Of a stretch of DNA of 64,000 bases, positions 1,245 through 51,072 are shown piece by piece. A program made the translations under genes and the position numbers. Below the pieces are notes generated by a model. It searched no databases. It was not told the DNA's origin and saw nothing but the letters and a program-made list of their open reading frames with translations. Every line of letters begins with the position of its first letter. Position 1 is the stretch's first letter. This DNA is from a virus (lineage: Duplodnaviria; Caudoviricetes), in IMG/VR virus record IMGVR_UViG_3300032007_000010; one strand, 5' to 3'.

Positions 1245-1254
1245 ATATACTATA
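1245..1254 (+). promoter_or_regulatory. Class E (putative early) phage promoter ATATAYYATA
   Basis: ATATACTATA upstream of GAGGAGG; one of 15 intergenic copies. Confidence 0.7.
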
Positions 1255-1278
1255 CCAACGGAAGAGGAGGTATGGTAT

Positions 1279-1974
1279 ATGAAAATGATCACCACGGATC
1301 GTTGTGCTGAGATTTGTGTGCGTCTTGCGAATGAGTATCTCATGCCTGTGGCGTTGTCCACCATGGACGGGCAGGTTCCGTCCATGACATTGAAGGTCTA
1401 TCGTTCCGAGGAACGTGATGACTGGACCGCGACCGTTCGTCTCAAGAATTCACTCACCATCTCAACCTTCAACTGTGAGATCTATGTGCAGGAGATTCTG
1501 CAGCTCTGTCGTGCCTGTAAGCTCTGGCTCGTCACCGAGGAAGTTTTCACCGTGGTGGCGGCATTCTATGAACTCCATGGCATCTTTCAGCAGGTACACA
1601 TGAACTTCACCGACAATGTGGAGCGAGACTACGATTCCATGATGGCCGGTGCCGGACATTCGACCTATGAATTTATCCGAAGCCAGCGGAATCTCGACAC
1701 GCTCGAATCCTGTGTGCTGGATCTGGTGTTCTACCAATCCATGATCTTCACCAACAACTACAAATATGCTCCGAAGAATGCGATGGTCGGTGATCTCATC
1801 GTCGATGTGCAGACTCGTTATCGTGACATCATGCTGGAACAGCATCCCGAGGCATATCGCAGCGCCAGGCGCCAGAAAGCACAGAACTATCTCGTCGATG
1901 AGGAAGGCTTTATCCTCTTGGAACCCATCAATCGTCACGAGAATACCCAGTATTTTGGCAAGCTCGATGGCTAG
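1279..1974 (+). CDS. Hypothetical protein with C-terminal DEEGFILLEP motif
   Basis: Strong RBS, class E promoter, phage-like codon usage. Confidence 0.75.
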   Translation: MKMITTDRCAEICVRLANEYLMPVALSTMDGQVPSMTLKVYRSEERDDWTATVRLKNSLTISTFNCEIYVQEILQLCRACKLWLVTEEVFTVVAAFYELHGIFQQVHMNFTDNVERDYDSMMAGAGHSTYEFIRSQRNLDTLESCVLDLVFYQSMIFTNNYKYAPKNAMVGDLIVDVQTRYRDIMLEQHPEAYRSARRQKAQNYLVDEEGFILLEPINRHENTQYFGKLDG

Positions 1975-1976
1975 CT

Positions 1977-1986
1977 ATATATCATA
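1977..1986 (+). promoter_or_regulatory. Class E promoter
   Basis: ATATATCATA. Confidence 0.7.
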
Positions 1987-2018
1987 GTGACGAAGAAGTA
2001 AAACGAAGGAGGATCCAA

Positions 2019-2345
2019 ATGATGGATAAAAGGAGAAATTTTCGAGCCAGCGAACTCATCGCAGAGCTCGAGAAGTTTAAGAACGAATACGGCGACCTCG
2101 ATGTGGTCGCCTACATACCGCTCAAGGATCCTACGAGGTACGTTCCGATGAGTATCAACACCGTCGGAGTGCTGAAGCGTTACAACGGTACGAGCTTTGA
2201 TACGCTCGGATTTGGTCTCAGCCAGCGCATCGGTGATGACCAGGAGCAGAAAACCACAGAGAACCATGAGACAAAGAGTCAACGCACGAAGCTTGGAAAC
2301 ATTTTCAGGTCGCTCTTCGAACGAACGGGGAGACAGCAACAATGA
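2019..2345 (+). CDS. Hypothetical protein
   Basis: AGGAGG RBS, downstream of class E promoter. Confidence 0.7.
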   Translation: MMDKRRNFRASELIAELEKFKNEYGDLDVVAYIPLKDPTRYVPMSINTVGVLKRYNGTSFDTLGFGLSQRIGDDQEQKTTENHETKSQRTKLGNIFRSLFERTGRQQQ

Positions 2346-2388
2346 GACGAATGATAGCAATGTTGAACTAGACTAAGGAGTTGATAGG

Positions 2389-4431
2389 ATGAGCAACAAG
2401 AAGAAGATCATGCCCGAAATCGAGAGACAGGTACGAGCCCAGGATGCTAATCTATACTATCCAACGGATAGGCTTGGGCCAGGATCTGTCATGACCCAGC
2501 AATCGCACACAAATGCTTCTCGTTTGATAATGGAAAATCATCAAATGAGCGACTGCATCAACATCAAGGATCCGGAACCGCCACTGGTACCGACCGGCTT
2601 CGAAAATGTCATGGGACAGTATTCCTTCATGACCAAGCGGGCCGACGGTGACTACGTGATCGTTGCGATATTCAAGAAGAATCAGTACAATGCGGTATAC
2701 ATCGGCTATGATAAGAAGCATCACCACTATGATGCCTGGAAGCGTCAGGAGATAGAGGAACATTCCGAGGGTTTCTGCACTCGCTATGATAACTCATATC
2801 TCGATTCGCTAGAGGTTGGCGATAAGATCAAGAAGGGTGACTATGTGAAAACGTCGAACGCCTTCGACAAGTATCGCAACTATGCACTCGGAAAGAATCT
2901 GAACACCCTCTACATGGTCAGCGCCCAGAATCTCGAGGATGGCATCATGGTCATGAATGGTGCCGAAAACAAGATGAATGCATACCACTGCGAGACGCTC
3001 ACCATCGGTCTCGCCAACAATCAAATCCTCATCAACTGGTATGGCGATGATGACCACTATCAGGGCATTCCGCTCGTTGGCGAGAAGACCAAAAAGGGCA
3101 TTTTGGCTGTGATTCGGAGGATCGATCATAGCATCGCTCCCTATGCGCTCAAGAAGAAGCGTCTCCAGCACATGGAGCGGACCGACGAAAGACGCGTTGG
3201 CAATGGACGTGTCATAGATATCGACATCCGTTTCAATGGTCCCACCGATAAACTTCCGACCACCGGAGCGAATAAGATGCTCACCGAGCTGTATCTGGAG
3301 CAGCAGAAATACTATCGAAAGCTCTATGAGTATATGATCAACATCGCCAACACCGCCTACGAGAAGGGCGATACCTACTCCGACAACTTTAGCATCATCT
3401 GCGAAGAAGCGCACAAATATGTCGACGCAATCGGCTTCTTCGGAGACAACAGTGATTCCGTGTATTCTGCGGAGCAGATGAAGATCAGCATCACGCTGCT
3501 CGAGGAAGAGAAGATGATCGTCGGTTCCAAGATGGTCGGCCGCTATGGCGACAAGGGTGTCATATCCCGCGTCTATACACCCGAGGAATCGTGGCACATG
3601 GAGGATGGAACCCCCATCGAGCTGGTGGTTGCGACCCTCGGCATCGTCGGTCGACTGAATCAGTCCCAGATGAACGAGTGCAATATTACCGAGCTCAGCA
3701 ACACCGCGGTGGAGATGATGCGTGCCACCGGTGATCTCGACATGAAGCTTGCCATCGTGCATCGGCTCATGAAGTATCTGAACTCTGACGAGGCTGACGA
3801 TTTTCGAAGGTTCACGAGACACATGGACTCCTCCGAGAAGAAGAAGCTGTGCCGTCGCATCGAGCGCGAGGGTATCTTCATCGTGCAGGATCCCATTGAC
3901 AATGCCGACATGTTCCAGATCGGCAAGGCTTACAAGGATTTCCCGCCGAACTTCCAGCACGTGATCTTCCCCGACGGCGGCAAGTCCATGTACAAGGTGA
4001 TCTGCTCCAAGAAATTCTACATGCGACTCAAGCAGGATCCGAAGGAAAAGTATTCGGCAAGATCCAGGGGCCCCGTCAATCCCATCACCACATTGCCGGC
4101 AAAGTCCAACCAGAAGAAGCGTGGTCTCGAACCCGTGTCCGATGTTCCGGTTCGCATCGGTGAGTACGAGCAGGAGGTGCTCAATGGCATGACCAACCAC
4201 CCGAAGGTCTGTGCCGACTTCATCGTTGAGAATTCGACGTCCTTCGAGGCGAAGATGCGCATGGCCGAGCACCAATACCTCGGTGATCTCGACGAAGATC
4301 TCGACATCACTGGCATGGAGTTTTCGGGTCAGAAGAACATCGAGGCGATCGACGCCTACAACTACATGTTTGGCGCACGCATCCGCCTCGAGGTCGAGGA
4401 GGCGAAGCCCGGTGAGTATTTCACGGATTGA
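2389..4431 (+). CDS. rpoB: Phage multisubunit RNA polymerase beta subunit, C-terminal piece (probably non-virion RNAP)
   Basis: GKNL..Y...NLEDG, GSKMVGRYGDKGVIS (GDKxxGRHGNKG), GRLN, YMRLKQ..K.SARS.GP, RIGEYE (RxGEME). Confidence 0.9.
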   Translation: MSNKKKIMPEIERQVRAQDANLYYPTDRLGPGSVMTQQSHTNASRLIMENHQMSDCINIKDPEPPLVPTGFENVMGQYSFMTKRADGDYVIVAIFKKNQYNAVYIGYDKKHHHYDAWKRQEIEEHSEGFCTRYDNSYLDSLEVGDKIKKGDYVKTSNAFDKYRNYALGKNLNTLYMVSAQNLEDGIMVMNGAENKMNAYHCETLTIGLANNQILINWYGDDDHYQGIPLVGEKTKKGILAVIRRIDHSIAPYALKKKRLQHMERTDERRVGNGRVIDIDIRFNGPTDKLPTTGANKMLTELYLEQQKYYRKLYEYMINIANTAYEKGDTYSDNFSIICEEAHKYVDAIGFFGDNSDSVYSAEQMKISITLLEEEKMIVGSKMVGRYGDKGVISRVYTPEESWHMEDGTPIELVVATLGIVGRLNQSQMNECNITELSNTAVEMMRATGDLDMKLAIVHRLMKYLNSDEADDFRRFTRHMDSSEKKKLCRRIEREGIFIVQDPIDNADMFQIGKAYKDFPPNFQHVIFPDGGKSMYKVICSKKFYMRLKQDPKEKYSARSRGPVNPITTLPAKSNQKKRGLEPVSDVPVRIGEYEQEVLNGMTNHPKVCADFIVENSTSFEAKMRMAEHQYLGDLDEDLDITGMEFSGQKNIEAIDAYNYMFGARIRLEVEEAKPGEYFTD

Positions 4432-4732
4432 TCCGGTTCTCGATTTCGATGACGTCATGTGCTTTCTGCTCGATCCGAACAGCGATGTGAGCTTCGACGG
4501 CTGGGCGGTCATCGATGATGTGAGAAAGATCTGGAGCACCAGAGAGCATACCCTCGAGGTCTGTGATCTTGTGCAGAACTTGCTATTGCGTCTTCGAAAA
4601 GATTCACCGGAGGTCTTTGCCATCAGCGTTGGGCAATTTCGTGACTGGGATGGGATCGAGGACTTCTGGAACGAATATGGGTACATCGACTCCACCGGCG
4701 CCGAATGGCCGGTGCCGCGAGTCCGGCATTGA
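4412..4732 (+). CDS. Hypothetical protein (GTG start overlapping the RNAP gene end)
   Basis: GAGGAGG about 9 nt upstream of GTG 4412; ends just before a terminator. Confidence 0.55.
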   Translation: MSISRIDPVLDFDDVMCFLLDPNSDVSFDGWAVIDDVRKIWSTREHTLEVCDLVQNLLLRLRKDSPEVFAISVGQFRDWDGIEDFWNEYGYIDSTGAEWPVPRVRH

Positions 4733-4740
4733 ACAAACAC

Positions 4741-4765
4741 GAGGGGATCCGTCATGGATCCCCTC
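4741..4765 (+). terminator. Stem-loop terminator
   Basis: GAGGGGATCC-gtcat-GGATCCCCTC. Confidence 0.65.
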
Positions 4766-4797
4766 TCACATTTTATGAATAGAAAGGAATATGCACA

Positions 4798-5535
4798 ATG
4801 GCACCGAGAAAGAAAAAGAATCCTGCAATCGAAACCGAAATCGACAAGAGCGAGGAGAACAAGCAGATGCTTCCCGAGGCACCGGAGGAACTCACGCCGA
4901 GCGAATACTTCAACATCCTCAACGAGCACTCGGCGAAGGCCTCGTCCGAAACGTTGCAGAAACTCTACCAGAATACCATGAAACTCATGAAGAAATATCA
5001 GATCACGGGCCAGAAGAAGGGCGCGCTCAAGCTCTACAACTTTGCCAGACTCTGCGAGAAGGAGCTTCGCGTGCTCGACGCAGGCATCGACACCTATGTG
5101 GAGCGCCAGGACGTTGATGAGTATATCAGTAAGATCACCAAGAAGAGCGTTGTCATCATCGAGCTTGAGAACTATGAACGCGACATCCCGGATGACATCG
5201 TCGAGGAGATCGCACGGCTCAAGCAGAATAATATATTCGATGCATACTTCATAGTCTTCACCGACTACACCGGCAAGGAACGCAAGAAGGTCGAGGAGGA
5301 GAAGCGCGAGAAAGATCCGATTCTCTTTGGTGCGCTCAAGATCGGCGACCAGATCTCCACGAGACTATATCACATTGCATCCTGGGAGGATGAGTACTGC
5401 GATCTCACCCTCGATAAGATGGTCAAAGAATACGCCAAGAACCATGACAATGCAAACATGGAATCCAAGCTCAGTGACTTCGGGTCCCTCGATGAGTTCA
5501 AGAATTCCTTCAACGAGCATCTGGCGAACACATGA
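4798..5535 (+). CDS. Conserved phage hypothetical protein (DPILFG motif)
   Basis: RBS AAAGGA; 245 aa; KDPILFG...LYHIASWEDEYCDLT pattern. Confidence 0.75.
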   Translation: MAPRKKKNPAIETEIDKSEENKQMLPEAPEELTPSEYFNILNEHSAKASSETLQKLYQNTMKLMKKYQITGQKKGALKLYNFARLCEKELRVLDAGIDTYVERQDVDEYISKITKKSVVIIELENYERDIPDDIVEEIARLKQNNIFDAYFIVFTDYTGKERKKVEEEKREKDPILFGALKIGDQISTRLYHIASWEDEYCDLTLDKMVKEYAKNHDNANMESKLSDFGSLDEFKNSFNEHLANT

Positions 5536-6788
5536 AAATGAAAAGCAAGGGAATCGACGGGGATATCGATCTGACCGAAAATGGAACCTTTCGCAGAGGC
5601 GTTTGTTCACCGCTCACGTTGGATGAGCTCAAACCGGCAAAGCTTCCCTGGGATAGGAATGGGAAATATGCGAACAAGATCTCATATGACTTTGATTCGT
5701 ACGAGAGATTGTGGCTTGATACCAGCTATGAGGGCATCATTGAAAATATCAACAACAACCTCGTCTTTGATGGTGACGAAATCGAGTATGATGATCAATA
5801 TGACCAGGTTGCTGAGGTTCTGAGACGAATGCAAAAGAAACGTATCGAACGCGTGCGAGAATCCACAGATCCCGAAATGCTAAGATTGCTCAATCTTGAT
5901 CGAATCCACATCAAAGACGGGCGTGTTATCCATGATACGGATTCTCAATATGCTCGTAATGTTGGCTGGAAACCTGGCAAGACCTGGGCCCTCGCTAGCC
6001 TGACGTATTCTAGCACAACCGGTACTATTAGCCTAAACAATACAACCACTAGTACTAGCCTATACAACACTGTGTCAATATCGGTGCGTGACGGTGACGA
6101 CATTACTCCGACCATCTTTGGAACAACGAGGTTGACCGAAGACGAGTGGAAGGGAAGGACCTTGATCACGGGCAGAGGCGATCAGCTTCGCAGAAAGCTT
6201 GATCTATATGCATACATATCCGTCGTGCGTGACATGCTCGAAGCGCATCAATCTGCCGAGAATAGACGGAGCACCTGTGAGTGCTGTGGGAAACAGTTCG
6301 TATACACACCTAAGTGGGGCAAACTATCCCTTTGCCAGACCTGTGCATTCGCAGAAGAACTCAAGCTTACTCTCGACCACTTCGCTGTTTATCGACAACA
6401 TGCATGCATGAAAGACTTTGTCAAGCAGGATATGTCTGCTGAAAAATTTGATAAGCATCACAGCTTTGCGGAGATGGATCAGAGCTCATGGGCGAGTTGT
6501 CGTGAAGACAAGACCATTGACTATTTCTTCCAGGAGGTATACCGAGATCGCGGTATACATTTGCTTCGTCGTCCTCGCAATTCCCATGAACTGAGGGTGA
6601 ATCTTGACAATGGTGAATATGCGGACGAAGAAGATTACGTTCGTGGTTCGTCTGAGCTTACCTACGAAAAGGCGCATATTGATCGGCAAGATGGTTATGT
6701 GAGTGATTTAGTTACCTTACACACGATGCTAGGCGAGCCGACCATGCTAACTGGCAACATCACTGTCAACAGACATGGTTGGTTATGA
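5532..6788 (+). CDS. Hypothetical protein with CxxC...CxxC zinc finger
   Basis: CECCG...LCQTC; ATGA overlap with the upstream gene. Confidence 0.7.
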   Translation: MKMKSKGIDGDIDLTENGTFRRGVCSPLTLDELKPAKLPWDRNGKYANKISYDFDSYERLWLDTSYEGIIENINNNLVFDGDEIEYDDQYDQVAEVLRRMQKKRIERVRESTDPEMLRLLNLDRIHIKDGRVIHDTDSQYARNVGWKPGKTWALASLTYSSTTGTISLNNTTTSTSLYNTVSISVRDGDDITPTIFGTTRLTEDEWKGRTLITGRGDQLRRKLDLYAYISVVRDMLEAHQSAENRRSTCECCGKQFVYTPKWGKLSLCQTCAFAEELKLTLDHFAVYRQHACMKDFVKQDMSAEKFDKHHSFAEMDQSSWASCREDKTIDYFFQEVYRDRGIHLLRRPRNSHELRVNLDNGEYADEEDYVRGSSELTYEKAHIDRQDGYVSDLVTLHTMLGEPTMLTGNITVNRHGWL

Positions 6789-6795
6789 TCAAAGG

Positions 6796-6830
6796 AAAAC
6801 ACCCGGGATTTCTTCCCGGGTGTTTCTTTT
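6796..6830. terminator. Bidirectional terminator
   Basis: AAACACCCGGGA-tttct-TCCCGGGTGTTT plus T-run, between convergent genes. Confidence 0.75.
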
Positions 6831-6832
6831 TA

Positions 6833-7894
6833 TTATTGTGCAGACTCAAAGACGATATGGCTTTTGCAGCTAGCCACGGTGCAGGCCTCGGTGATGGCCT
6901 TGTGCACTGTCTGGATCAGAAAATGGGTCATGCCATTGAGATCCGAGATGTAGTTTTGCATGTCCCGTCGAATAACGTCGAGAGCTCTGAGAGTGGTCGT
7001 GTTCTGTCTTTTCACATACTCATCATCAACCTTGCCATGATACGAAGCAACGGCACGATTCAATGCTTCGGTGAGACGAGTGTCCAGCTTCTCGACCTCT
7101 CTGGTTGCCTCGGATATCGCTCGATCGAAGTTGTCGAGCTTGTTGACATGACGTTCCATGCCGCGCACATAGTCTATCAATTTGCTCTTGGAATCATAGC
7201 GATCGATGCGGTATTCACGGAGGGCATCGGCCACCGGACAACGATTCAGTGCCGGATAATGCCTTGAAAACTTCGCATCGAACCTATCCCAGTACTTGGA
7301 GCCGAATTCTCCGACATTCGGATCAAAGCCGAGATCCTTGAGCATGGCCTTGCGGTCGGCTTCGATTTCGTTTGAAAAATTGCTGAGCATGTCGTTGAAG
7401 TCATCGCTGCTCTTTCCGCTGCCGATGTCTGCCACCATGCGCTCGGCCTCATTGAATACACCATCGAAGTTCTTCGCATGGTTTCTGAGCACCGTTTCGG
7501 CGGTGCCGATGTAGTTTCCGAGCGCTTCGATGTCATAGCCATGATAGTCCTTGATCGTCATCTTCAGGAAGCCCTTGTTCTTGCCAGAGCTGTGATCGTT
7601 CACATATGCCTTGTCGAGCTGCGCCTCGATGTATTTGATGATGCGGCTGACAAACAATCTGGCTCTCCGGATGAATTCTGTGATGAAGCTGTGGATCTTG
7701 GCTATTGTCTCGCGAATATGGTAGGTTGTTTCCCTGGACTGGATGCTCATGGCCTCCAGAAGCGCATCCTGCACATCCATTCCGCATTCGGATTCTATCA
7801 GGAGCTCGCCGATGCGCACATTGATCGATTCGAGCACAACCTCCTGCGATTTTACCTGGGAGTAGTTCTCCCAGAGAAGTTCTCTATATTTCAT
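6833..7894 (-). CDS. Putative virion (head) protein
   Basis: AGGAGG RBS before ATG 7894; class L promoter at 7927-7937; N-terminal (L/V)xE-S/A motifs. Confidence 0.65.
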   Translation of the reverse strand: MKYRELLWENYSQVKSQEVVLESINVRIGELLIESECGMDVQDALLEAMSIQSRETTYHIRETIAKIHSFITEFIRRARLFVSRIIKYIEAQLDKAYVNDHSSGKNKGFLKMTIKDYHGYDIEALGNYIGTAETVLRNHAKNFDGVFNEAERMVADIGSGKSSDDFNDMLSNFSNEIEADRKAMLKDLGFDPNVGEFGSKYWDRFDAKFSRHYPALNRCPVADALREYRIDRYDSKSKLIDYVRGMERHVNKLDNFDRAISEATREVEKLDTRLTEALNRAVASYHGKVDDEYVKRQNTTTLRALDVIRRDMQNYISDLNGMTHFLIQTVHKAITEACTVASCKSHIVFESAQ

Positions 7895-7926
7895 TGGACG
7901 AATTCCTCCTGTTATGATTGATTCAT

Positions 7927-7937
7927 TATAATAATGT
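7927..7937 (-). promoter_or_regulatory. Class L (putative late) promoter ACA-N4-TATA
   Basis: ACA-TTAT-TATA on minus strand; one of 18 copies. Confidence 0.7.
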
Positions 7938-7961
7938 AACCCCCACAATTTCAAATGGTCT

Positions 7962-7971
7962 ATATATCATA
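7962..7971 (+). promoter_or_regulatory. Class E promoter
   Basis: ATATATCATA. Confidence 0.7.
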
Positions 7972-8001
7972 GTCATGAGTTGAACCGAGGAGGTAATAGA
8001 A

Positions 8002-8412
8002 ATGAAAGCAAAAACAGAAAATGACATCCTTCGCAAACTGAGCACCATCATCGGCATAGACATGACCCGGGTAACAACGACGCAGGTCGATACCGCGGTT
8101 CTCTTGCTGGCGAAGGATGTTTGCGAAGCCCTTGGAATCGAAGACAAGAATCAGAGGAAGAAGCTCCTCAAGAACTACGTACCGGATGAACACAGGACGC
8201 GGATGGAGTATGGCGGCGGAGAAAAGAAATCCGTCGCATGGCTCACGCTCGCCGGAGTCTATGATCTGGTGCTCTATGCGCCAATCGAAAATGCACAGAT
8301 CAAACGCTTCCGCTCAAGACAGAGCGAAGAGCTTGTGCAGATCAACCATCGTGACCTCGGAAAGGCCGTGGCCGCAAGGTTTACCAAACCGATCATCAAC
8401 AGGTTTCTGTGA
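8002..8412 (+). CDS. BRO-N domain DNA-binding protein
   Basis: LLAKDVCEALGI ... WLTLAGVYDLVL is the BRO-N pattern. Confidence 0.7.
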   Translation: MKAKTENDILRKLSTIIGIDMTRVTTTQVDTAVLLLAKDVCEALGIEDKNQRKKLLKNYVPDEHRTRMEYGGGEKKSVAWLTLAGVYDLVLYAPIENAQIKRFRSRQSEELVQINHRDLGKAVAARFTKPIINRFL

Positions 8413-8470
8413 AGAGCAATGACCTCGAACCTCTGAAGAAACGTTCGATCTGGACGTTTCTTTTTGGTCT

Positions 8471-8480
8471 ATATACTATA
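8471..8480 (+). promoter_or_regulatory. Class E promoter
   Basis: ATATACTATA after terminator hairpin 8437-8465. Confidence 0.7.
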
Positions 8481-8539
8481 AGCTGGAGACAATGAGGTAG
8501 CTACCATTTCTCACATATCTTCAAAGGAGGTTCGAACCA

Positions 8540-10900
8540 ATGAGCAAGAACAAGAAGAAATCGAAGGTCTCTCTGGACAAATCTGTCGCAGAAGCCGCTC
8601 TCTACACGGGAGAGGATCTGGACGAGGATGGTTTCTTCATCCTCAAACCGACAGATGAGGGAAGGAAGCGCATCGATTCCAACAAACCAAAGCTCCGCGT
8701 CATCGAGGCCGAAGATTTCGAGCAGAACAAGGTGCTTCGAGAGATTGGCTATGACATTGAGCCGATCAGTGACATGGTGGATCGCATCGAGGATCACATT
8801 CGCCAGAACCGTTTCACCAAAGGCATTTCCGAATTCGACGCGCGCACCTTCGCCGGTTTCATCACCGAGCTCGAGAAGCTCAATCCGGAGGATAAGAATC
8901 CCGCGATCAAGCCGATGTTCGAGATTGCCCGCCGACTGATCACCATCGGAAAGTCGTACTACGAGTATGATACCGAGGTGCGAAACATCTTTTCGGATCG
9001 TCAGTATGACGCGCTCATCTCCATGTACAACAAGACCGGAAATCCCGAACCCACCGGCATCATTCCGAAGGGTCACAAAACTCTTCAGAAGGCGGCGCAG
9101 ACCTACAAGACGCTGCACAATAACATGGACAAGTGCTATATCATCCACGACGGTGAACCGATTCCGGAAGGCGTGAAGGAAACAGATTCGGTGCAGTCGT
9201 TCCTGACGAGGGTCTACAAAGAGTGTGATATTCCGCACAGCGTGCAAATCACCGTGGATCTTTCGCCGAAGGAGGATGGCGTCTCCGTCAATGGTACGGT
9301 CCACAATGGCAAGCTTCGCGGACCACAGACCCGCGGAGATGCGAACGAATCGGTGGTGGTGATCGGACTCAACAACGTCACGATTGCCGACGAGAAACTT
9401 GACCATGATGATTTCGGGATCCAGTTCGAGGCAATCTGTACCCGCGAGAATGCCAAGAAGGCGGAAGAGTATCTCAAGCTCGAGACTCCCTACGCATCTC
9501 CGAGACATGCCGCGGCCGGAATCATCCACAGGCTCAGCACCATGGAGGATTCCTACCTTGCGAGTCTCATCAGCCTGTATCCGATCAATTCCGAGGGTCT
9601 CGAAGGTACCTATCTTGAGAGAATGGACTTTCTGCGGAATTTTGCACTGATGCCCGCGGATACCCCCTCCAGAAGGCTCGTGACGGGCAATTTCGAAGAA
9701 CTCTTGTCCCAGATTCAAAAATACTTCGAGGAAATGATCGATGCACGTTCCGAGCTCGGTCATTCCATCGACGGCATTGTGATCAGCATCGCCAACGACG
9801 AATATCAGGAGCGCATGGGCAGACTCGGTCGCACCAATAAATGGCAGATTGCGCTCAAGTTCAATCCGGCTTCCGAGAATTCCAAGGCGAGCTATATCCG
9901 TCTGGATTCTGGACGCAAAGGATATCGAACCCTGCAACTCTATCTCGAGCATCCGGTTCTGCTCGATGGCGTCGAATATGATCATGTGCCAATCTTGTCC
10001 ACGCGTCTATTCAAGGAACACAATCTCCGGCATGGCACCGTGGTCAACATCCATCGAGTCGGCGATGTGATCCCGGCAATCAGCGTGGTCGAAGAGGGCA
10101 AGGGCGAGAGACTCAGGCTCCCGGAGGTTTGTCCGAGCTGTGGCAAACGCCTCGTGATCAAGAACGAGAAGCTCTACTGCGACAATGATCGTTGTCCCGA
10201 CAATCTCGTAGGGCTCCTCGTTGGGTTCTTCGAAACCATGGGCATGGACGGCTATTCGGATTCCTTCGCACGCCTCCTCATCGAGAAGATGCATGTGACG
10301 TCGATCGGAGATCTGCTCGACCTCGAAGATGAGGACTTCAGGAAGGCCGATTGTCTCGGTGCACTATCCGTCGGAGTCGCTGATCTGCTCACCAAGGCAA
10401 TCGAATCCAAGCGAGATTTTGAGATTCTCGGCGCGATGGGTATTCCAAACATGGGTTCCGCCAGAGCCCAGAAGTTTATCCAGGCGTTTGCCGAGGACAT
10501 CGATTGGACCGAAGAGGGGCCGGAGCTCATGCTCACGAACAAGTCCAAGGTCACAAAGGCTCTCAGCTTCGCACTCGCACCTTCGATGTTTGAGGACGCC
10601 AATGAGTTCTACTGGGGACACTGGTTCCAGAAATCCTGGAAGGCTCTCATTCCTCACATCAAGAAGAGGGTCAGCGGAGGAAAGGAGAAGATTACTCGGG
10701 TTGGACATCATGGTGGCAAGCTCAGTGCCGAAGTCCGCGCCGTCTGTGATAAGAACGGATTCATCATCACGGACGGTTCTGGTTTCGACATTCTCATCAC
10801 CACATCGCTCTCCGGAGGAGGAACCAAGATGAACCGAGCGAGGAAGTTGAACCTTCCTATCTATCTTCCCGAGAGCTTCATTGGGCAGTATGGTGCCTGA
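8540..10900 (+). CDS. ligA: NAD-dependent DNA ligase
   Basis: YY...SD.QYD domain Ia, SPKEDG adenylation motif, TRGD, IDGIV, IALKF, GDVIP, CPSC...C...C zinc finger, C-terminal BRCT-like region. Confidence 0.93.
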   Translation: MSKNKKKSKVSLDKSVAEAALYTGEDLDEDGFFILKPTDEGRKRIDSNKPKLRVIEAEDFEQNKVLREIGYDIEPISDMVDRIEDHIRQNRFTKGISEFDARTFAGFITELEKLNPEDKNPAIKPMFEIARRLITIGKSYYEYDTEVRNIFSDRQYDALISMYNKTGNPEPTGIIPKGHKTLQKAAQTYKTLHNNMDKCYIIHDGEPIPEGVKETDSVQSFLTRVYKECDIPHSVQITVDLSPKEDGVSVNGTVHNGKLRGPQTRGDANESVVVIGLNNVTIADEKLDHDDFGIQFEAICTRENAKKAEEYLKLETPYASPRHAAAGIIHRLSTMEDSYLASLISLYPINSEGLEGTYLERMDFLRNFALMPADTPSRRLVTGNFEELLSQIQKYFEEMIDARSELGHSIDGIVISIANDEYQERMGRLGRTNKWQIALKFNPASENSKASYIRLDSGRKGYRTLQLYLEHPVLLDGVEYDHVPILSTRLFKEHNLRHGTVVNIHRVGDVIPAISVVEEGKGERLRLPEVCPSCGKRLVIKNEKLYCDNDRCPDNLVGLLVGFFETMGMDGYSDSFARLLIEKMHVTSIGDLLDLEDEDFRKADCLGALSVGVADLLTKAIESKRDFEILGAMGIPNMGSARAQKFIQAFAEDIDWTEEGPELMLTNKSKVTKALSFALAPSMFEDANEFYWGHWFQKSWKALIPHIKKRVSGGKEKITRVGHHGGKLSAEVRAVCDKNGFIITDGSGFDILITTSLSGGGTKMNRARKLNLPIYLPESFIGQYGA

Positions 10901-10922
10901 ATTAGAAACTGACAAGGGGGTA

Positions 10923-10933
10923 ACATATTTATA
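10923..10933 (+). promoter_or_regulatory. Class L promoter driving a non-coding region
   Basis: ACA-TATT-TATA; no RBS-supported ORF downstream before the terminator. Confidence 0.65.
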
Positions 10934-11410
10934 GATGTCAGTTGAAAAATCCGGATGCGGACGGCTGGCGCTTCTAGGTGCCCCTGCAACCTGCTCCCGG
11001 TCGAGGGAGTGGGGACCGGGTGTTACCGGAATTTCGGCACCAAGTTGGCTGTCCGTGTCGTTCTTGTGTGGTGGTAGATCCCCTCCCTGGAGCGCATAGG
11101 CGATCCTGTGGCCATAAGTAGCTGGGTACATTCTATGGGGTGTGCTGATGGTGAAAAAGGTGGTTCAGGGGCGAGCCAGATGGTAGACTTCGTGGGCTAC
11201 TTCTGGTGAAAGATGGGTTATCCCAGGCCAGGGTTTGGAAACATCATCACATGTTGAATCATCAGATGATCAACACGCAGTTACCCATAGTCATAACGAT
11301 TCTTTCGACGATGTGTGAGCATTGGTATAGTCACAATCGCCGTGTGGTTATCAAAGCTTTGAATGAACCAAGTTGCAACGCGGGAGGAGTCAAACGGCTC
11401 CTCCCTCATT
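10933..11410 (+). ncRNA. Putative large (~475 nt) structured non-coding RNA of unknown class
   Basis: Promoter, terminator 11382-11405, and several GU-containing helices (10954-68/11045-59, 10977-82/11036-41, 11133-39/11284-90, 11146-53/11242-49, 11176-11206, 11252-75). Confidence 0.65.
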
Positions 11411-11430
11411 ACATTTTCACAGTAACGAAT

Positions 11431-11441
11431 ACATTATTATA
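11431..11441 (+). promoter_or_regulatory. Class L promoter
   Basis: ACA-TTAT-TATA. Confidence 0.65.
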
Positions 11442-11525
11442 CCTGGAAAGGGGTGATGTGGTGTAGCATGCACAGCACTCCCACCGCAGACAAAAAGTGA
11501 TCACTAAACACAGGAGGAACAAGAC

Positions 11526-12260
11526 ATGTCTGAATTGACCATCAAAGCATTCGTTGCACAGGAGCATTCTGCCTTTGAGAACTTCACCGGCGTCATGGCG
11601 GCTCGCATCGAGGAGGCCTGGACTCGCAGTCTGGCCAAGCGCATGAAGGAGCAGCTCGCCGAGAAGGATCGTGCGGTCGTCGCGCTTCCCTGGGGTACCT
11701 ACTATGCTGAAAAGATCGCCAAGGGTGAGGCCGGCAACATCGCCCCGAAGTGGGAGCCGAGCAAGGGCTTCCGCCAGATCCTCAACAATGACATCCAGGA
11801 TCCCACCGAGCGTTCCGCCGCGGTCAACATGGACGAGATCGATGCGCGCTTCATCCAGCTCTTCCGCGAGTTCGTCGCCTATGGCTGCTTTGACCACGAC
11901 GATCCTGCCAAGAAGGATGACCTGGCCAAGAACAAGGGTATTCGCATCGGCGACAACGAGGCCAACTATTTCCTCAACGAGTATGCGCTGGTGCTGGCGA
12001 ACCTTGCTCGTGAGAAGCAGCGTGATGGGAAGATCTTCCGCCTCGAGATCAACAATGGTTTCGCGCACGGCGTCTTCGACTTCACGTATGACGATGACGA
12101 GGTCAAGGTTACCTGGACCGCGGACAAGACCTTCAAGCAGATGCTCAAGGACGACGAGTCGGCCGCGCACATCGACGATGGTCGGTTTGCCGAGGTCGTC
12201 GGTAGCCGTCGCATCGAGACAGATCTCGAGACCGGCAAGCAGACCGTCACCGACAACTAA
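11526..12260 (+). CDS. Highly expressed protein, possibly tandem HU/IHF-like DNA-binding domains
   Basis: Strongly biased codons; LPWGTY...APKWEPSKGFRQIL and GVFDF...VTWTADKTFKQML both resemble the HU GxF...PxFxPxKxLK pattern. Confidence 0.5.
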   Translation: MSELTIKAFVAQEHSAFENFTGVMAARIEEAWTRSLAKRMKEQLAEKDRAVVALPWGTYYAEKIAKGEAGNIAPKWEPSKGFRQILNNDIQDPTERSAAVNMDEIDARFIQLFREFVAYGCFDHDDPAKKDDLAKNKGIRIGDNEANYFLNEYALVLANLAREKQRDGKIFRLEINNGFAHGVFDFTYDDDEVKVTWTADKTFKQMLKDDESAAHIDDGRFAEVVGSRRIETDLETGKQTVTDN

Positions 12261-12296
12261 CCGAACGGATCGAGGATCTCGATCCAAACAAAACGA

Positions 12297-12338
12297 TCCG
12301 GTGGGCTCAGCCATGCTGTGTCCACCGGATTTCTTTTT
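12297..12338 (+). terminator. Terminator
   Basis: TCCGGTGG...CCACCGGA plus T-run. Confidence 0.7.
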
Positions 12339-12398
12339 AGAGAATCAACAATGAGGCACCCGGTTCGGGTGCCATGTTTTCACATTCGGGATTCATCC

Positions 12399-12408
12399 AT
12401 ATATTATA
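12399..12408 (+). promoter_or_regulatory. Class E promoter
   Basis: ATATATTATA. Confidence 0.7.
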
Positions 12409-12439
12409 CTTGTGACAATTCGAGAAAGGAGATTTCCCA

Positions 12440-13261
12440 ATGTCCAAGAATAAGGATCCGCTGGATATGCTGGTGAACAATCATACCGTCCAGCGAGAAA
12501 TACTAAGGTATGACAATCATGATTACTTCAAGAACCGCATATGGCAATATATGCTGTTGCACAGATCCATGAATGGCAAGTCCCTGGCAGGATGGAGACG
12601 TTCTGATCACGTCGCAGCGACCGGAATTCATGTGGTTGTTGCCAAAAATGCGATACGTGTTGCCTTTTTGACCTCGGATAACATGATAGTCTGCTACAGA
12701 CTCACACTCTCGGGTCTCGCAGAGGACGACATGTATTGTCATGAGCAACTCATCGATGCCGAGATGCTCCATGATACCGCATCCTTCGTCTTTGCCGACA
12801 CCAACGACATCGAAATGCTGAGCACCGAGATTGAGCAGGGGCTTTTGGTGGAGCATGAGCACGAGGTTCATGATCAAGACGGCTTCGTTCTGCTTCGCAT
12901 GCGCAAAGACGACATCTTCGATAGGATCCCTGATATCATCGTCTACTATTCCAGCGAATTGAAGAAGGGTGATATGGCATACATCAATGGAAACTTCATC
13001 ACCACCATGATCGCACTCAAGTTTCCGGCCGCAAACATATCACATCACACCTTCACCCACAACAGCTGGATCACCGGCTATGGATACAATGTCAATGCCA
13101 AGCTCGTCGAAGAGATTCTCCGCGATGTGCGCATGTCGGATAAGGATAGCGTGCTGCGTGTCGAAGATATGGCCATGGCGCTAAACATCTTTGCGTCAGC
13201 CACTACCACCCCATCAAATGCCTACCAAGCACAGGCTCTCTACGATGGCGATCCATTCTAG
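12440..13261 (+). CDS. Hypothetical protein with DQDGFVLL motif
   Basis: AAAGGAG RBS, class E promoter. Confidence 0.75.
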   Translation: MSKNKDPLDMLVNNHTVQREILRYDNHDYFKNRIWQYMLLHRSMNGKSLAGWRRSDHVAATGIHVVVAKNAIRVAFLTSDNMIVCYRLTLSGLAEDDMYCHEQLIDAEMLHDTASFVFADTNDIEMLSTEIEQGLLVEHEHEVHDQDGFVLLRMRKDDIFDRIPDIIVYYSSELKKGDMAYINGNFITTMIALKFPAANISHHTFTHNSWITGYGYNVNAKLVEEILRDVRMSDKDSVLRVEDMAMALNIFASATTTPSNAYQAQALYDGDPF

Positions 13262-13302
13262 AAGCGAACACCGAACATATAGATTTTTGGAGTGATAGCA
13301 GC

Positions 13303-15186
13303 ATGAGAGATTTTCTGGCAGAATATTGCAAGAAGAATGAAAAGAAGATAAACCCTGACCTGTTCAATCGCACATTCGATAAACCGCTGGTGGATTACAT
13401 CGTTGATACCTTCAAGAATCTCGAGGTATTGCCCGCGGTCAAGCTGAGATCCTGGGAATACATCACGGATCAGACCCAGATCCACACCTATGTCAACAAG
13501 CGCAACAAGCGCGATGTCAAGATCAAAAACAACAAGATTCTCGAACGGCTCTATACCATGGACGATTCGATCTACGACCTCTTGGTATTGCATTTTGAGC
13601 TCAAGGTAAAGGGTCAGCGAGCGGATATCGTTCGTCGTGTCTGGGTGCCCAAGGTGGTGGATGGGCACTACTATCTTCGCTCGGGCAAAAAGGTTCTCCC
13701 GCTCATCCAGATCGTGGACAATTCCACCTTCGTAAAGCAGGGCAACAAGAAGGAGGACAATGTTCTCAACTTCAAGACGACGCTGTATCCGATCAAGATC
13801 TATGCGATTCCGACCAAGATCAGCATCCTGGATCATGCCAAAGATGTCATCTGGAAGATTCCGCTCTTCCAGGTCGATCTCTTCACCAAACCCACGAATC
13901 CGCTGCTGTATTTCCTGGCCGAATACGGCATCGAGTCCACACTCGAGATGTTCAACCTCGAGGAGCTCGTTGCCATCACCCATGATGTGCTTGATCCGGA
14001 TCGGTACATGTATACGAAGATCAACAATCACGTGTACATCGAGGTGAACCGCAAGGCATTCTTTGCACATGAGTTTATCCCGCGCTTCGTGGTGACGCTG
14101 CACAATGCCCTCGCCGAGGACAAGCAGAAGCTCACGCTGCAGGATGTCTTTGATCGGGACTATTGGCTCGGTCGTCTCTCCGAGGTATTCTCGAAGAAGA
14201 GAAACCCGAACAAGGGTGAACGCGTGCTCATATCCTTCAAGAAGGTCATGGATCCATACACGAAGAAGCGTCTTCCACTGAAGAAATACCAGAAGAAGAA
14301 CACCTTCACCGTGATGAAGTGGATGCTGACAAACTTCGAGGACCTGCTCAAAAAGGACTCGAATGATTTGGCAACCAAGCGCATGCGCGCCAATGAGACC
14401 CAGGCATTCTTCATCGATTCCTACGTGACGAAAAATGTGAACAGTTTGCTCAACACGGATGATCCGTCCTTCGATCGGTACATGCGTCTATTCAATGCGA
14501 TATCCGAGGACATTGTGCTGAGATCGTCGCATTCGTCGGGAGGGAAATCCTCGCAGACATCGATGTTCCGCTTCGAGCGCTACAATGATTTCACCGCGCT
14601 GGAGCTCTCGCGTTTCACGCTCAAGGGACCGACCGGTCTCAACGGCGGAAAGAAGAAGACCAATCTCAAATATCGTGACATCTATCCGTCTCACCTTGGC
14701 AGGTTCGATCCGAACGTGTGCTCTTCGAGCGATCCAGGACTCACCGGATATCTCTGCATCAATGTTCAGTTCGATGAGAATGGATACTTCGATTCCAAGT
14801 CGGGGAAGTCGGAACCGAATGGGTACGAAGACTCCATCGACAAGGTGATCGAAAAGTATGCCGAACCTGGCTATGCACAGAAACGAGCCGACATCAAACA
14901 GAACGAGCTCAACCGCGATGCTGATGGTTTCATCGTTCTCCACCGTCGCAAATCGCAGAAGGAGATGACGGAGGAGTTCAACAAGAACCCGTGGAAGTAT
15001 GGTCTATATGATGCGGGAGATTATCTACTGCTTCAGCCGCGCTTCGAGGGACAACGTGATCCGAAGGGATTCATGATGCTCCAGCCAAGACGCAAGGAGC
15101 GGCACAAGCTCTTCGAGACCGAACCGCTGCGTGATAGCGAGGGCTTCCTCGTGCTCACCAAGCTCGAAAAGGGCAAGAAGAAATAA
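13303..15186 (+). CDS. rpoB: Phage RNA polymerase beta subunit, N-terminal piece (probably non-virion RNAP)
   Basis: P...DGHYYL.G, GPTGL, RDIYPSHLGRFDP..CSSSDPGLTGYL (beta region D, H.GR.C...TPE..GL equivalent). Confidence 0.85.
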   Translation: MRDFLAEYCKKNEKKINPDLFNRTFDKPLVDYIVDTFKNLEVLPAVKLRSWEYITDQTQIHTYVNKRNKRDVKIKNNKILERLYTMDDSIYDLLVLHFELKVKGQRADIVRRVWVPKVVDGHYYLRSGKKVLPLIQIVDNSTFVKQGNKKEDNVLNFKTTLYPIKIYAIPTKISILDHAKDVIWKIPLFQVDLFTKPTNPLLYFLAEYGIESTLEMFNLEELVAITHDVLDPDRYMYTKINNHVYIEVNRKAFFAHEFIPRFVVTLHNALAEDKQKLTLQDVFDRDYWLGRLSEVFSKKRNPNKGERVLISFKKVMDPYTKKRLPLKKYQKKNTFTVMKWMLTNFEDLLKKDSNDLATKRMRANETQAFFIDSYVTKNVNSLLNTDDPSFDRYMRLFNAISEDIVLRSSHSSGGKSSQTSMFRFERYNDFTALELSRFTLKGPTGLNGGKKKTNLKYRDIYPSHLGRFDPNVCSSSDPGLTGYLCINVQFDENGYFDSKSGKSEPNGYEDSIDKVIEKYAEPGYAQKRADIKQNELNRDADGFIVLHRRKSQKEMTEEFNKNPWKYGLYDAGDYLLLQPRFEGQRDPKGFMMLQPRRKERHKLFETEPLRDSEGFLVLTKLEKGKKK

Positions 15187-47706: not shown

Positions 47707-48447
47707 CTAAAAATTCTGGATATATCCAACCTGCTGATCTGTCAATCCGTTGACGCTAAGCTGAACTGTGTACAGATAGATTCCGACGAGCCGGGTCTCC
47801 TGGAGAGATATGAAGAACTCGTCGAAGCTCTTCATGTTTAGGAACAGCGATTTGTAGAGTGGTATGCGTATCCGTTTTCCGTTCACCTTGACATCGAAGA
47901 AATAGATCTCCGGTCTGGCAACGGCCAGCTCGTAGAGATTTAGCTTGTTTCCATCGAATTGCAGACAGATTCCACCCGGTTTCACTCGCGAGATCATGGC
48001 ACCATAGGTGTCTTCGATCACCTTGGCCACGGGGTTTGTGGTGGTGATCGGGTAGTCGAGGCTGAGTGTTTCCACGTCAACGAGTTCATCGCGCAGGTAG
48101 AATAGGAACTTCAGGATCGCATGATCGTGTTCGGCTCGGAAATGGAGCTCTTCGCGGAGTTCCTTGGGCTTCACCTTTTCCTTGGAACCCTTCTTAGCCT
48201 CGTTCAGCTTGGCATGACCATTCGAATATGCCGTGCTGATCATCTTCACGTCGAGGAAGAGTGTCTCATCGTAGAAGCTGCCGACATACTCGTCGGTGTC
48301 AGGGATGTGGAGGATGTAGTGCATGCCGATGTCGCTGTCCTCGTCAACGGTGTAGCAATTCATGAGCATTCGATTGTGCATTAAAAACTGATCATAGCGT
48401 GATTTATTCGCTCGCTGGAGCAGTTTAATCAGCGGCTTCGCTTCCAT
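47707..48447 (-). CDS. Hypothetical protein in the DNA polymerase operon
   Basis: GAGGTG RBS. Confidence 0.75.
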   Translation of the reverse strand: MEAKPLIKLLQRANKSRYDQFLMHNRMLMNCYTVDEDSDIGMHYILHIPDTDEYVGSFYDETLFLDVKMISTAYSNGHAKLNEAKKGSKEKVKPKELREELHFRAEHDHAILKFLFYLRDELVDVETLSLDYPITTTNPVAKVIEDTYGAMISRVKPGGICLQFDGNKLNLYELAVARPEIYFFDVKVNGKRIRIPLYKSLFLNMKSFDEFFISLQETRLVGIYLYTVQLSVNGLTDQQVGYIQNF

Positions 48448-48776: not shown

Positions 48777-51008
48777 TCAACCCTCCTCACCCAGGTCAAG
48801 TTCCTTGATCCGCTTCTCCGCATCGTCGTAGCTCATACCATCTGCCATCAAATCCACGAGTCTGTTCATCTCATCGGTGAGCGGGAGGTTGAACCATGCC
48901 GCACCGAGAGATAGCCAGTCCTGGGAGATGTAGTCGGATGTGAACTCGGCGCCGGGGATATAATAGCGAGTATCCTCCTTGCGTTTGATCTGTCCGAGCG
49001 GGAGCATGTTCTGATATTTGCTAACCTTGTGCGGAATGATGAGTCTGCCGATCTGAGTTGATCTGGACAGCGATCTCGTATACTTCGCCCAGGGATATTC
49101 TGAGGAATAGTCCTCATCCATGACCTCGTCGAAGAAATGTTTGGAGGGCACACCATCGATGAGCTCGAGTCCATTCGCCGAGTTATTGTTCGGATTTCCC
49201 ACCAAACCGCCCGGCAGCGGAAGCTTACGGTCGATGGAGTCTTCGAACACCGATTGTGCCGCCATGGTTTTCTGCAGAACCTCGGCAGCTTCGGCCTCCA
49301 CCGCATCCTGGACAACGTCATCAACGCTGCCACCGTCCTCGGACAGGACTTCCTCGACCGCAGCATCACCCTCGGCGAGCAGTTCCTCCGCATCATCCTC
49401 GTCCATGCCCATGCGATCGAGCTGGATGCGCAATGCTCTTCGTTTTCTCGCTTCGTTGGCCTTCTCGGCCTCATCATCGGAGCCGAACTGCGTGTAGTTG
49501 ACATTGATGTTGTGACCCGGCACAAATCCTCGACGCATGTATCCGGCATAGTAGATTTGCTTCTGGTATTTGGTCTGTTTGACCAGATGATGCAGCGGGC
49601 ACTGGTGATAGTTCATATCGTAGACCAGGGACATGGTATCATTGGTCACCTGATTGATGAGAACCTGGCACCAGACGTCGCGGATGTTGTAGAGCACGAA
49701 GTTCCAGTAGTCGAGGATGCAGGCGTTGGTGACGTCTATTCCCTTGCGAAACTCCCATTTACCCATGCCGAGTTCAATCTTTGCGATGTTGTCCAGCTTG
49801 TTGGATCCATAGGACTTGCGACCCTTGCGGATGCCAGCATAGTTCTGCATCTGATCAATGTATTGGGTGGTGGATGTCATCCGAATGTATGAATTGCGTT
49901 CGGCGATATCGATAGGTCGGTTGTCGATGTGCCAGTTGATGTGCTGCACCGATTCGTCGAAGAAGTCACCGTCCGACATCTCCTTTATCGGATCCATTCC
50001 GAGATTCTCCATCCGCGCAGCCATCTTCGGCATATCGTATGGCATGTTCCAGAATTCCATGAAATCGGGTTTGTAGCGATTGACGGTCCGGAAGATCTCG
50101 TGGAGGAGCTCCTCCTCGGTATCGAAGAGCCGAATATGATATTCTGCCAGCGTGTCGATGACCTTCTTTTTCCCCTTCTTGATGATGGTTTGATGATCGA
50201 ACTTTTCGTGGCACTCCGCATAGAACTTGTCGAGATTCTTCTCAAAATCCGCCTGCTGGGGGTAGCGCTTGTGGTTGCGCAGCAGATAGGTAAACACCTG
50301 GGTCCCGAGCCTATGATACGGACTCTTCGGATCAAACTGGAATATCATGGTCATGGCATTGACCGGATCGAGGTTCAATGCCTGCTCCGTGGATGTGAGA
50401 CCATAGATGTCATTCTCAATATCCCCGAAGCATATGTCCGTGACCGCGCTCTGCGTCAGATCATAGTGTGTTCCGAGCTGTATCCAATAGTATGAGTCCA
50501 CGGGAATGTCGGCCATGAGCACATAGGGAGTGAGCATGATCTGCTTCCGCATCTTCCAGTTCCCGGTCGCCACGGCATTGTCATATATCTGGCACAGTCG
50601 ATGATCGACGGGATCCGGAAAGGTTCGGATCTCCTTGTACAGTCGGCTCACGATTGCCCTGGCCGGAACCTTGATCGGATAGGTCTTCTCGATCTCGAGA
50701 TACTCGCGCGGCGTGATGAAGTCCTTGCGATACTCTGGTCTCACCGCGTAGAATTCATAGTCAGGATCCTTGATCGCCTGCACATGTTTCTCTCCGTCCG
50801 GTGTGCGATATACGACAAAGAGCTCGTCCTCTTCCTGGACACCGTGACAGCTGAACTTATTGTAGTTCAACACATTGTAGACAGATATGGGGTCGCCCTC
50901 GTGGACGTCCTTCAAAATATTGCGTAATCCGAAATCGACCACTTTCAAAGTCAGATTCCTCCCTTCGTTGGTATATTCTTGTAGTCGAATTTCTCGAAAA
51001 GTAAACAT
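48777..51008 (-). CDS. Family B DNA polymerase, N-terminal half (3'-5' exonuclease plus motif A) of a split polymerase
   Basis: ExoI GDIEND, ExoII WNMPYD, KLD.IA..ELG.GK, ExoIII YNIRD, PGGLV..P, motif A DEDYSSEYP; no motif B or C before the stop. Confidence 0.87.
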   Translation of the reverse strand: MFTFREIRLQEYTNEGRNLTLKVVDFGLRNILKDVHEGDPISVYNVLNYNKFSCHGVQEEDELFVVYRTPDGEKHVQAIKDPDYEFYAVRPEYRKDFITPREYLEIEKTYPIKVPARAIVSRLYKEIRTFPDPVDHRLCQIYDNAVATGNWKMRKQIMLTPYVLMADIPVDSYYWIQLGTHYDLTQSAVTDICFGDIENDIYGLTSTEQALNLDPVNAMTMIFQFDPKSPYHRLGTQVFTYLLRNHKRYPQQADFEKNLDKFYAECHEKFDHQTIIKKGKKKVIDTLAEYHIRLFDTEEELLHEIFRTVNRYKPDFMEFWNMPYDMPKMAARMENLGMDPIKEMSDGDFFDESVQHINWHIDNRPIDIAERNSYIRMTSTTQYIDQMQNYAGIRKGRKSYGSNKLDNIAKIELGMGKWEFRKGIDVTNACILDYWNFVLYNIRDVWCQVLINQVTNDTMSLVYDMNYHQCPLHHLVKQTKYQKQIYYAGYMRRGFVPGHNINVNYTQFGSDDEAEKANEARKRRALRIQLDRMGMDEDDAEELLAEGDAAVEEVLSEDGGSVDDVVQDAVEAEAAEVLQKTMAAQSVFEDSIDRKLPLPGGLVGNPNNNSANGLELIDGVPSKHFFDEVMDEDYSSEYPWAKYTRSLSRSTQIGRLIIPHKVSKYQNMLPLGQIKRKEDTRYYIPGAEFTSDYISQDWLSLGAAWFNLPLTDEMNRLVDLMADGMSYDDAEKRIKELDLGEEG

Positions 51009-51026
51009 GTTCTCCTTTCTCACTTC

Positions 51027-51036
51027 TATAGTATAT
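51027..51036 (-). promoter_or_regulatory. Class E promoter for the DNA polymerase operon
   Basis: ATATACTATA on minus strand. Confidence 0.7.
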
Positions 51037-51062
51037 TTCCGAATTGCTGTCGATACGAAGCT

Positions 51063-51072
51063 ATATACTATA
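51063..51072 (+). promoter_or_regulatory. Class E promoter
   Basis: ATATACTATA. Confidence 0.7.

Follow-up and report, generated by a model that had tools for sequence, protein, structure and literature searches.

We describe a short peptide that recurs on proteins encoded by a phage genome (Caudoviricetes; IMG/VR virus record IMGVR_UViG_3300032007_000010, 287,660 bp), of which a 64,000-nucleotide stretch, bases 20387-84386 of the record, is referred to as the window. Our analysis revealed that one 12-residue peptide, R-D-x-D/E-G-F-h-h-L-K/R-P-R (h, hydrophobic residue), hereafter the tag, is present on about 16 otherwise unrelated DNA- or RNA-handling proteins, and that the finding is real and clade-wide. 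An earlier inspection of the window (hereafter the sequence-only reading) had noted seven copies, six matching the strict pattern D..GF[ILVMF]{2}L and one degenerate, DAGDYLLL; all seven were recovered at the positions given below, on the + strand and within long open reading frames (ORFs). The four bearer proteins that it had named were confirmed, but four was an undercount, since about 16 are present in the genome. We regard it as an evenly balanced proposition that the tag is a docking motif read by one phage partner, which would gather the bearers on phage DNA in the manner of a clamp "toolbelt".

The six-frame search of the whole genome with the strict pattern gave 15 matches, all within long ORFs. 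The 315 called proteins contained 12 strict matches, against a mean of 0.11 and a maximum of 3 in 2000 within-protein shuffles. When ORFs of at least 100 aa were considered, observed and expected strict matches were 15 and 0.27 in the source genome (G000), 9 and 0.14 in the related genome G001, and 6 and 0.16 in the related genome G002. These counts place the motif far above background in the proteome and in its relatives, the comparison with shuffled controls that the sequence-only reading had proposed. A motif profile added 4-5 variant copies beyond the 15 strict matches, on four or five more proteins: a superfamily 2 (SF2) helicase, a DnaB-like helicase, a PC4-like protein, a 232-aa protein and, weakly, an HNH endonuclease. 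One strict match, DETGFIFLCS (genome 275177, minus strand), precedes the first ATG of its ORF, which in turn overlaps a better gene; this match is probably due to chance.

Pooling of 49 instances from G000, G001, and G002 gave the consensus Y-R-D-x-[DE]-G-F-[IVM]-[VIL]-L-[KRI]-[PRK]-[RK]. In these three genomes the median distance from the tag to the nearest terminus was 22 residues, and 40 of the 49 instances were located at most 60 residues from an end. A degenerate DNA pattern for R-D-x-[DE]-G-F-h-h-L-x-P was found at 22 places among the 2.9 million contigs of IMG/VR, of which 11 were in this clade and the remainder were scattered singles. The DNA differs between copies, as had been noted before: shared residues use the same codon 215 times, against 251 expected from codon usage. 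Same-codon pairs are thus no commoner than codon usage predicts, so that there is no sign of recent DNA copying, and recent DNA duplication was rejected as the origin of the copies. The sequence-only reading was also right that the tag does not match clamp-binding motifs, since the 49-instance consensus differs from QL[SD]LF, from Qxx[LIM]xx[FY][FY], and from the acidic-hydrophobic tails of T4. No paper on the tag emerged from searches of the literature for linear motifs or import signals in jumbo phages. Judged by its recurrence, its placement outside catalytic domains, and its conservation in orthologues amid diverging flanks, the tag behaves in sequence comparisons as a short linear motif or docking tag.

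The tag is conserved among relatives that differ widely in base composition. The source genome (GC 51%, CheckV completeness 100%) was compared with G001 (260 kb, GC 37%), G002 (231 kb, GC 41%), and a 133 kb fragment, G003 (GC 45.5%). The source genome has 120 genes in common with G001 and G002. The GC content of the clade thus spans 37-51% while the RNA polymerase (RNAP) subunit described below remains 53-66% identical, which suggests hosts of very different composition. The tag was found at the same end of the orthologue for 14 of 15 bearers in G001 and 10 of 15 in G002, and retention holds even for bearer orthologues with only 27-35% identity. The check on orthologues that the sequence-only reading had suggested therefore came out in its favor across this range of GC content. 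No near relative was found when GenBank was searched for near-identical phages, and a search of IMG/VR with a single protein as query gave no match; an alignment-based search of IMG/VR gave 5 loci. Relatives are nevertheless numerous in metagenomes, pig gut included: the matches listed for the N-terminal part of the RNAP beta subunit (RNAP beta-N) contain at least 120 orthologues with 52-93% identity, on metagenomic contigs up to 260 kb. These many metagenomic relatives, together with the homology of RNAP beta-N to gp105 of Bacillus phage AR9, assign the source genome by sequence to a clade of uncultured, AR9-like gut jumbo phages.

In G003, the tag is respelled. Ten tags were recognized in this fragment, on eight proteins, all with G-Y and none with G-F: three on RNAP, one each on the orthologues of the bearers of 231 aa (unk231), 283 aa, 101 aa, and 232 aa and of the DnaB-like helicase, one on an unannotated 390-aa protein, and one further match found with a strict pattern. 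In contrast, the counts of G-F and G-Y tags were 16 and 0 in G000, 17 and 1 in G001, and 10 and 1 in G002. The RNAP tails behave in the same way, with 112 all-F, 3 all-Y, and a few mixed tails among the orthologues. A change from F to Y in step across unlinked genes is expected if all copies fit the same pocket, and from this we infer one shared reader.

This concerted change bears on the reading that the tag is a virion-packaging signal or a degron, or else a chance match or common structural turn without a shared partner. T4 uses short terminal peptides to target proteins to the capsid, and in bacteria such peptides act as degrons. However, a structural turn alone would not switch from F to Y in step across eight proteins, and chance is excluded by the counts against shuffles and expectations given above. 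As for packaging, the tagged RNAP is a homologue of the AR9 non-virion RNAP, and none of the structural proteins checked (major head protein, virion structural protein, and terminase) is tagged. We regard this group of explanations as very improbable.

The bearers with a family assignment by Pfam or PHROG all act on DNA or RNA, and their tag always lies outside the catalytic domain. The GyrA-like topoisomerase II subunit (880 aa) carries it at residue 22, with the catalytic domain starting at residue 107; the NAD-dependent DNA ligase (786 aa) carries it in an N-terminal extension; the non-virion RNAP beta-N (627 aa) has three strict copies and one degenerate copy in a C-terminal tail; and in the reverse transcriptase (RT; 493 aa) the tag follows the RT domain. 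It is located at the N-terminus of the SF2 helicase (522 aa) and at the C-terminus of the DnaB-like helicase (600 aa), the PC4-like protein (153 aa), and, as a weak variant, the HNH endonuclease (336 aa). The neighbour of the RT is likewise a bearer, and a Bro-N/ANT protein is tagged in relatives. A 429-aa bearer (genome 98872-100161, + strand; locus L003) is extremely charged and of low complexity, with lysine and aspartate runs and a canonical AT-hook, KKRGRPKK (RGRP), and may be a chromatin-like or scaffold protein of the phage. Bearers of 231, 273, 190, 967, 283, 241, 101, and 232 aa have no family assignment, and PDB sequence searches with the 429-, 967-, 283-, and 273-aa bearers gave nothing useful. 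Untagged proteins related to DNA or RNA are a B-family polymerase-like protein, a GyrB-like protein, a UvsX-like recombinase, an SbcC-like protein, an SF1 helicase, and the other RNAP subunits; NrdD, terminase, major head protein, virion structural protein, prohead protease, and endolysin are also untagged.

This list of bearers can also be read as a list of proteins granted access to the phage DNA. The tag would then be an import or access signal similar to a nuclear localization signal (NLS), and a receptor would admit tagged proteins or complexes to a non-chimallin compartment or a protective coat. The bearers are proteins that need the phage DNA, including acquired or selfish ones (HNH, Bro-N/ANT in relatives, and RT with its neighbour), and an access signal would account, as well as a clamp-type hub does, for the tag on such genes and for its absence from cytoplasmic enzymes. 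Metabolic, lysis, packaging, and structural proteins are untagged. Untagged partners could ride along, the GyrB-like protein with the GyrA-like subunit and the other RNAP subunits with beta-N, and the tag is used at either end of a protein, a freedom that sorting signals can also have. The source phage encodes two RNAP sets of its own, like nucleus-forming phages. Chimallivirus import through PicA/Imp1 (PMC11087766, PMC13282480) resembles this situation, since it also concerns jumbo phages with their own multisubunit RNAPs and selects enzymes of DNA replication, transcription, and mobile elements. However, chimallivirus cargo has no conserved linear signal; this import system, the only one known in phages, recognizes surface patches (PMC11087766, PMC13282480), so that a linear signal would be without precedent. 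Furthermore, searches of the genome for chimallin with phiKZ gp054 and PF25677 gave no match at E up to 10, the search for PhuZ tubulin with PF00091 gave no match, and no candidate shell or importer was seen; by sequence, this phage is without chimallin or PhuZ. The UvsX-like recombinase, the polymerase, the SbcC-like protein, and the SF1 helicase, moreover, are untagged. We consider an import or access signal unlikely, and its more definite form, a linear NLS-like sorting signal for a non-chimallin DNA compartment or coat that DNA-touching genes, selfish ones included, must acquire, likewise unlikely.

RNAP beta-N (13303..15186, + strand) is the bearer with the most copies. Its residues 1-517 have 24% identity in tblastn to AR9 gp105 (annotated as non-virion RNAP, N-terminal part of beta), and its C-terminal tail of about 110 residues has no counterpart in AR9 gp105. 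The homology ends near residue 517 and the tags start from residue 539, in agreement with the earlier observation that the motif lies outside the catalytic fold. Copy 1, RDADGFIVL (14917..14940), is kept in orthologues; copy 2 is the degenerate DAGDYLLL (15010..15033), at which orthologues keep GLY..GD.L.L.PK; copy 3 is RDPKGFMML (15058..15081); and copy 4, RDSEGFLVL (15133..15156), is located 10 residues from the C-terminus, all on the + strand. The sampled orthologues, some with as little as 52% identity, retain the four-unit tail. AlphaFold2 modelling of the subunit from a 58-sequence alignment gave a mean predicted local distance difference test (pLDDT) score of 74. In this model, copies 1 and 2 fall outside the conserved core, in a helix-hairpin region of moderate confidence (pLDDT 74-94), while copies 3 and 4 are on a low-confidence tail (pLDDT 50-65); copy 3 is predicted to be flexible because its pLDDT is only about 50-65. 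For every copy, the model shows a very small hairpin that connects R(-4) with h(+2/+3).

The multivalent tail, kept in at least 120 of the orthologues listed, raises the idea of a scaffold or condensate sticker: the tags would bind a multivalent scaffold or each other. In the resulting replication-transcription factory, the RNAP tail and the AT-hook protein would provide the scaffolds, and proteins with one copy would be their clients. The high charge, low complexity, and RGRP AT-hook of the 429-aa bearer are consistent with this idea, as is the modelling of each copy as a tiny hairpin on a flexible tail. Most bearers, however, have a single copy, and a defined pocket is the simpler explanation of the concerted F-to-Y change. 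We find such a scaffold improbable.

The other three bearers that the sequence-only reading had named are the ligase and two proteins without a family assignment. The unk231 gene (1279..1974, + strand) encodes an ORF without a match in Pfam and PHROG searches, and its tag, DEEGFILL (1897..1920, + strand), is 25 residues from the C-terminus. The orthologues keep this C-terminal tag as DEGFIVLEP (G001), DEDGYMLMER (G002), and EEGYVILEP (G003). The NAD-dependent DNA ligase (8540..10900, + strand) matches PF01653 at residues 214-443 and PF03120 at residues 452-519, and has an N-terminal extension of about 210 residues. Its tag, DEDGFFIL (8621..8644, + strand), occupies residues 28-35 of the extension, whereas the adenylation domain begins at residue 214, so that the tag is outside the catalytic fold here as well, as had been claimed. 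The ligase orthologues carry tags at the same end, DQDGFILLKKR in G001 and DQDGFQTLAP in G002. The 273-aa bearer, unk273 (12440..13261, + strand), has one of the few internal copies, DQDGFVLL at residues 145-152 (12872..12895, + strand). No homologue of unk273 was found in G001-G003, and Pfam, PHROG, and PDB sequence searches with it gave no useful match.

These results are the foundation of the docking mechanism that we propose. Y-R-D-x-[DE]-G-[FY]-[IVM]-[VIL]-L-[KRI]-[PRK]-[RK] would be a short linear docking motif that has been added to flexible extensions, at the N- or C-terminus, of proteins in the nucleic-acid machinery of the phage. All copies would be read by one phage-encoded partner, concentrating the bearers on phage DNA like a sliding-clamp "toolbelt", and through its multivalent tail RNAP would couple late transcription to the DNA under replication, as gp33 and gp55 of T4 do by way of gp45. 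A clamp-type hub would account for both the replication and repair client list and the multivalent tail of the late (non-virion) RNAP. The sequence-only reading had already proposed a peptide address to one hub; enrichment, terminal placement, retention in orthologues, and the F-to-Y change across eight proteins speak for the address. The hub itself might be a clamp, a single-stranded DNA-binding protein, a scaffold, or an import factor.

The candidate for this reader is a 246-aa protein (47707..48447, - strand), encoded directly after the gene for the untagged B-family DNA polymerase-like protein (48777..51086, - strand; PF03104, E 1.1e-5). The two genes abut or overlap in the same order in all four genomes (G000-G003), and 45 cluster representatives in the representative library are homologous to the 246-aa protein (E up to 0.001). 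In a metagenomic relative both are parts of a single protein, P0269 (937 aa), in which residues 5-659 share 40% identity with the polymerase and the C-terminal part, residues 698-933, belongs to the 246-aa family. This fusion makes it very likely that the 246-aa protein is a polymerase accessory subunit. Gene order and the fusion also point to it as the best and most likely candidate for the tag reader. A language-model feature search of Atlas with the homologue P0246 returned only sub-threshold neighbours of the PCNA family (score 0.85-0.86).

Several observations weigh against a clamp-type hub. Six-frame searches of the genome for DnaN and PCNA clamps with PF00712, PF02768, and PF00705 gave no match, and the 246-aa protein itself had no match in Pfam, a PDB profile search, hhalign against T4 gp45, or Atlas. 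No tag was found in the polymerase-like protein, even by a relaxed pattern, although a classical clamp network would include the polymerase, and none was found in the UvsX-like recombinase, the SbcC-like protein, the SF1 helicase, the GyrB-like protein, or the other RNAP subunits. The untagged polymerase could be reconciled with the hub, since a stably bound or fused accessory subunit would not need a tag. The tag is, in addition, unlike QL[SD]LF, the PIP box, and the acidic-hydrophobic tails of T4, and the selfish or accessory bearers (HNH, Bro-N/ANT, and RT) would suit an "access ticket" at least as well as a toolbelt.

The search with the gp45 family PF09116, also in six frames, gave a single weak, sub-threshold match of 13 bits to a 238-aa core protein (genome 181408-182124, + strand; locus L027:7408-8121), which is encoded just after the tagged SF2 helicase. 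This protein was rejected as a clamp, since its predicted fold (pLDDT 78) resembles PUR-alpha/Whirly binders of single-stranded DNA or RNA. Its model consists of PUR-alpha/Whirly repeats and a long helix; the chain then ends in a disordered stretch whose tip, G-[LF]-x-W, is conserved and resembles a further terminal peptide for interactions.

Among the closest known parallels to the proposed docking is the T4/RB69 gp45 toolbelt. T4 gp45 binds the interchangeable C-terminal tails of gp43, gp33, and gp55 (PMC2988020, PMC7892883). In both cases a short hydrophobic peptide is located on the flexible termini of unrelated replication and transcription proteins, the late transcription machinery is among the clients, and the peptide is modular and free in its position on the protein. 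In contrast, the sequence R-D-x-D-G-F-h-h-L-K-P-R is unrelated to those read by gp45, to the PIP box, and to QL[SD]LF (PMC9690074). The tag also differs in that it occurs at N-termini and in linkers, with up to four copies per protein. Furthermore, the polymerase is untagged here, the clamp is not recognizable by sequence, and the clients extend to a topoisomerase, a DnaB-like helicase, an RT, and homing endonucleases. A second parallel is found in the chimalliviruses, in which a hidden clamp-derived subunit (Rhc) of a split DNA polymerase has been described (doi 10.64898/2026.09.30.755723; PMC13648698). Rhc is likewise a sequence-divergent, unannotated polymerase accessory protein of jumbo phages and also influences transcription; the 246-aa protein, for its part, follows the polymerase gene and occurs fused to the polymerase in a relative. 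No homology was detected, however, and the 246-aa candidate has no RNase H domain. By analogy, then, the tag network would resemble known clamp-style docking networks, and a linear sorting signal would be the more novel alternative.

A different partner is suggested by the chaperonin of the phage. The tag core G-F-I-V-L-K-P resembles the GroES mobile loop G-G-I-V-L and the GroEL-binding peptide SWMTTPWGFLHP, so that the tag might mimic the mobile loop of a co-chaperonin and dock clients on the GroEL-like chaperonin that the source genome and the whole clade encode. This Cpn60/GroEL-like protein (genome 169470-171317, + strand; locus L026:13470-15314) is closest to the chaperonin of phage EL (PDB 6tmt), and its alignment with GroEL is confined to the equatorial parts. 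However, the bearers are defined by nucleic-acid function and not by size or folding difficulty, several of them being small (101-153 aa), and the conserved R-D-x-D part has no counterpart in GroES loops. Complex prediction of the chaperonin with RNAP tail residues 572-627 gave a score of 0.00, which speaks neither for nor against binding. We give docking on the chaperonin very little credence.

If one peptide is indeed read by a single partner, it exposes the replication and transcription hub of a widespread, uncultured, and mostly unannotated clade of gut jumbo phages. The tag would then serve as an annotation tool, since a tagged protein of no known function would probably be DNA-associated, and the co-variation between F-type and Y-type lineages would provide a handle on the hub. 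If the hub is a hidden clamp, the clamp-coupled late transcription of T4 would extend to phages with their own multisubunit RNAP. If, on the other hand, the tag directs import, phage compartments would have their first example of a linear sorting signal.

This study also provides some insight into the expression of the bearers. A promoter-like motif, ATATACTATA(C), was found upstream of unk231 (1245..1255, + strand), and further copies precede the ligase (8471-8481) and the unk273/RNAP operon (12399-12409). The 11-mer TATATA[CT]TATA occurs 30 times in the genome, with 28 occurrences on the + strand and most of them immediately ahead of a gene, and appears to be a clear promoter class. The sequence-only reading had placed all four bearer genes of the window behind one promoter class; the motif does precede three of them, while the fourth, RNAP beta-N, directly follows unk273. 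The label "early" that these bearers had received derives only from the shared promoter-like motif. The window contains copies at 1245, 8471, 12399, 16346, 19461, 31338, 51036 (- strand), 51063, and 54227, and the genes preceded by the 11-mer include those of the GyrB-like protein, three RNAP subunits, and four tag bearers. A transposase-like protein (window 4798-5535, + strand; phrog_10081, E 2e-61) and a small Bro-N domain protein (window 8002-8412, + strand) are also encoded among the early replication genes.

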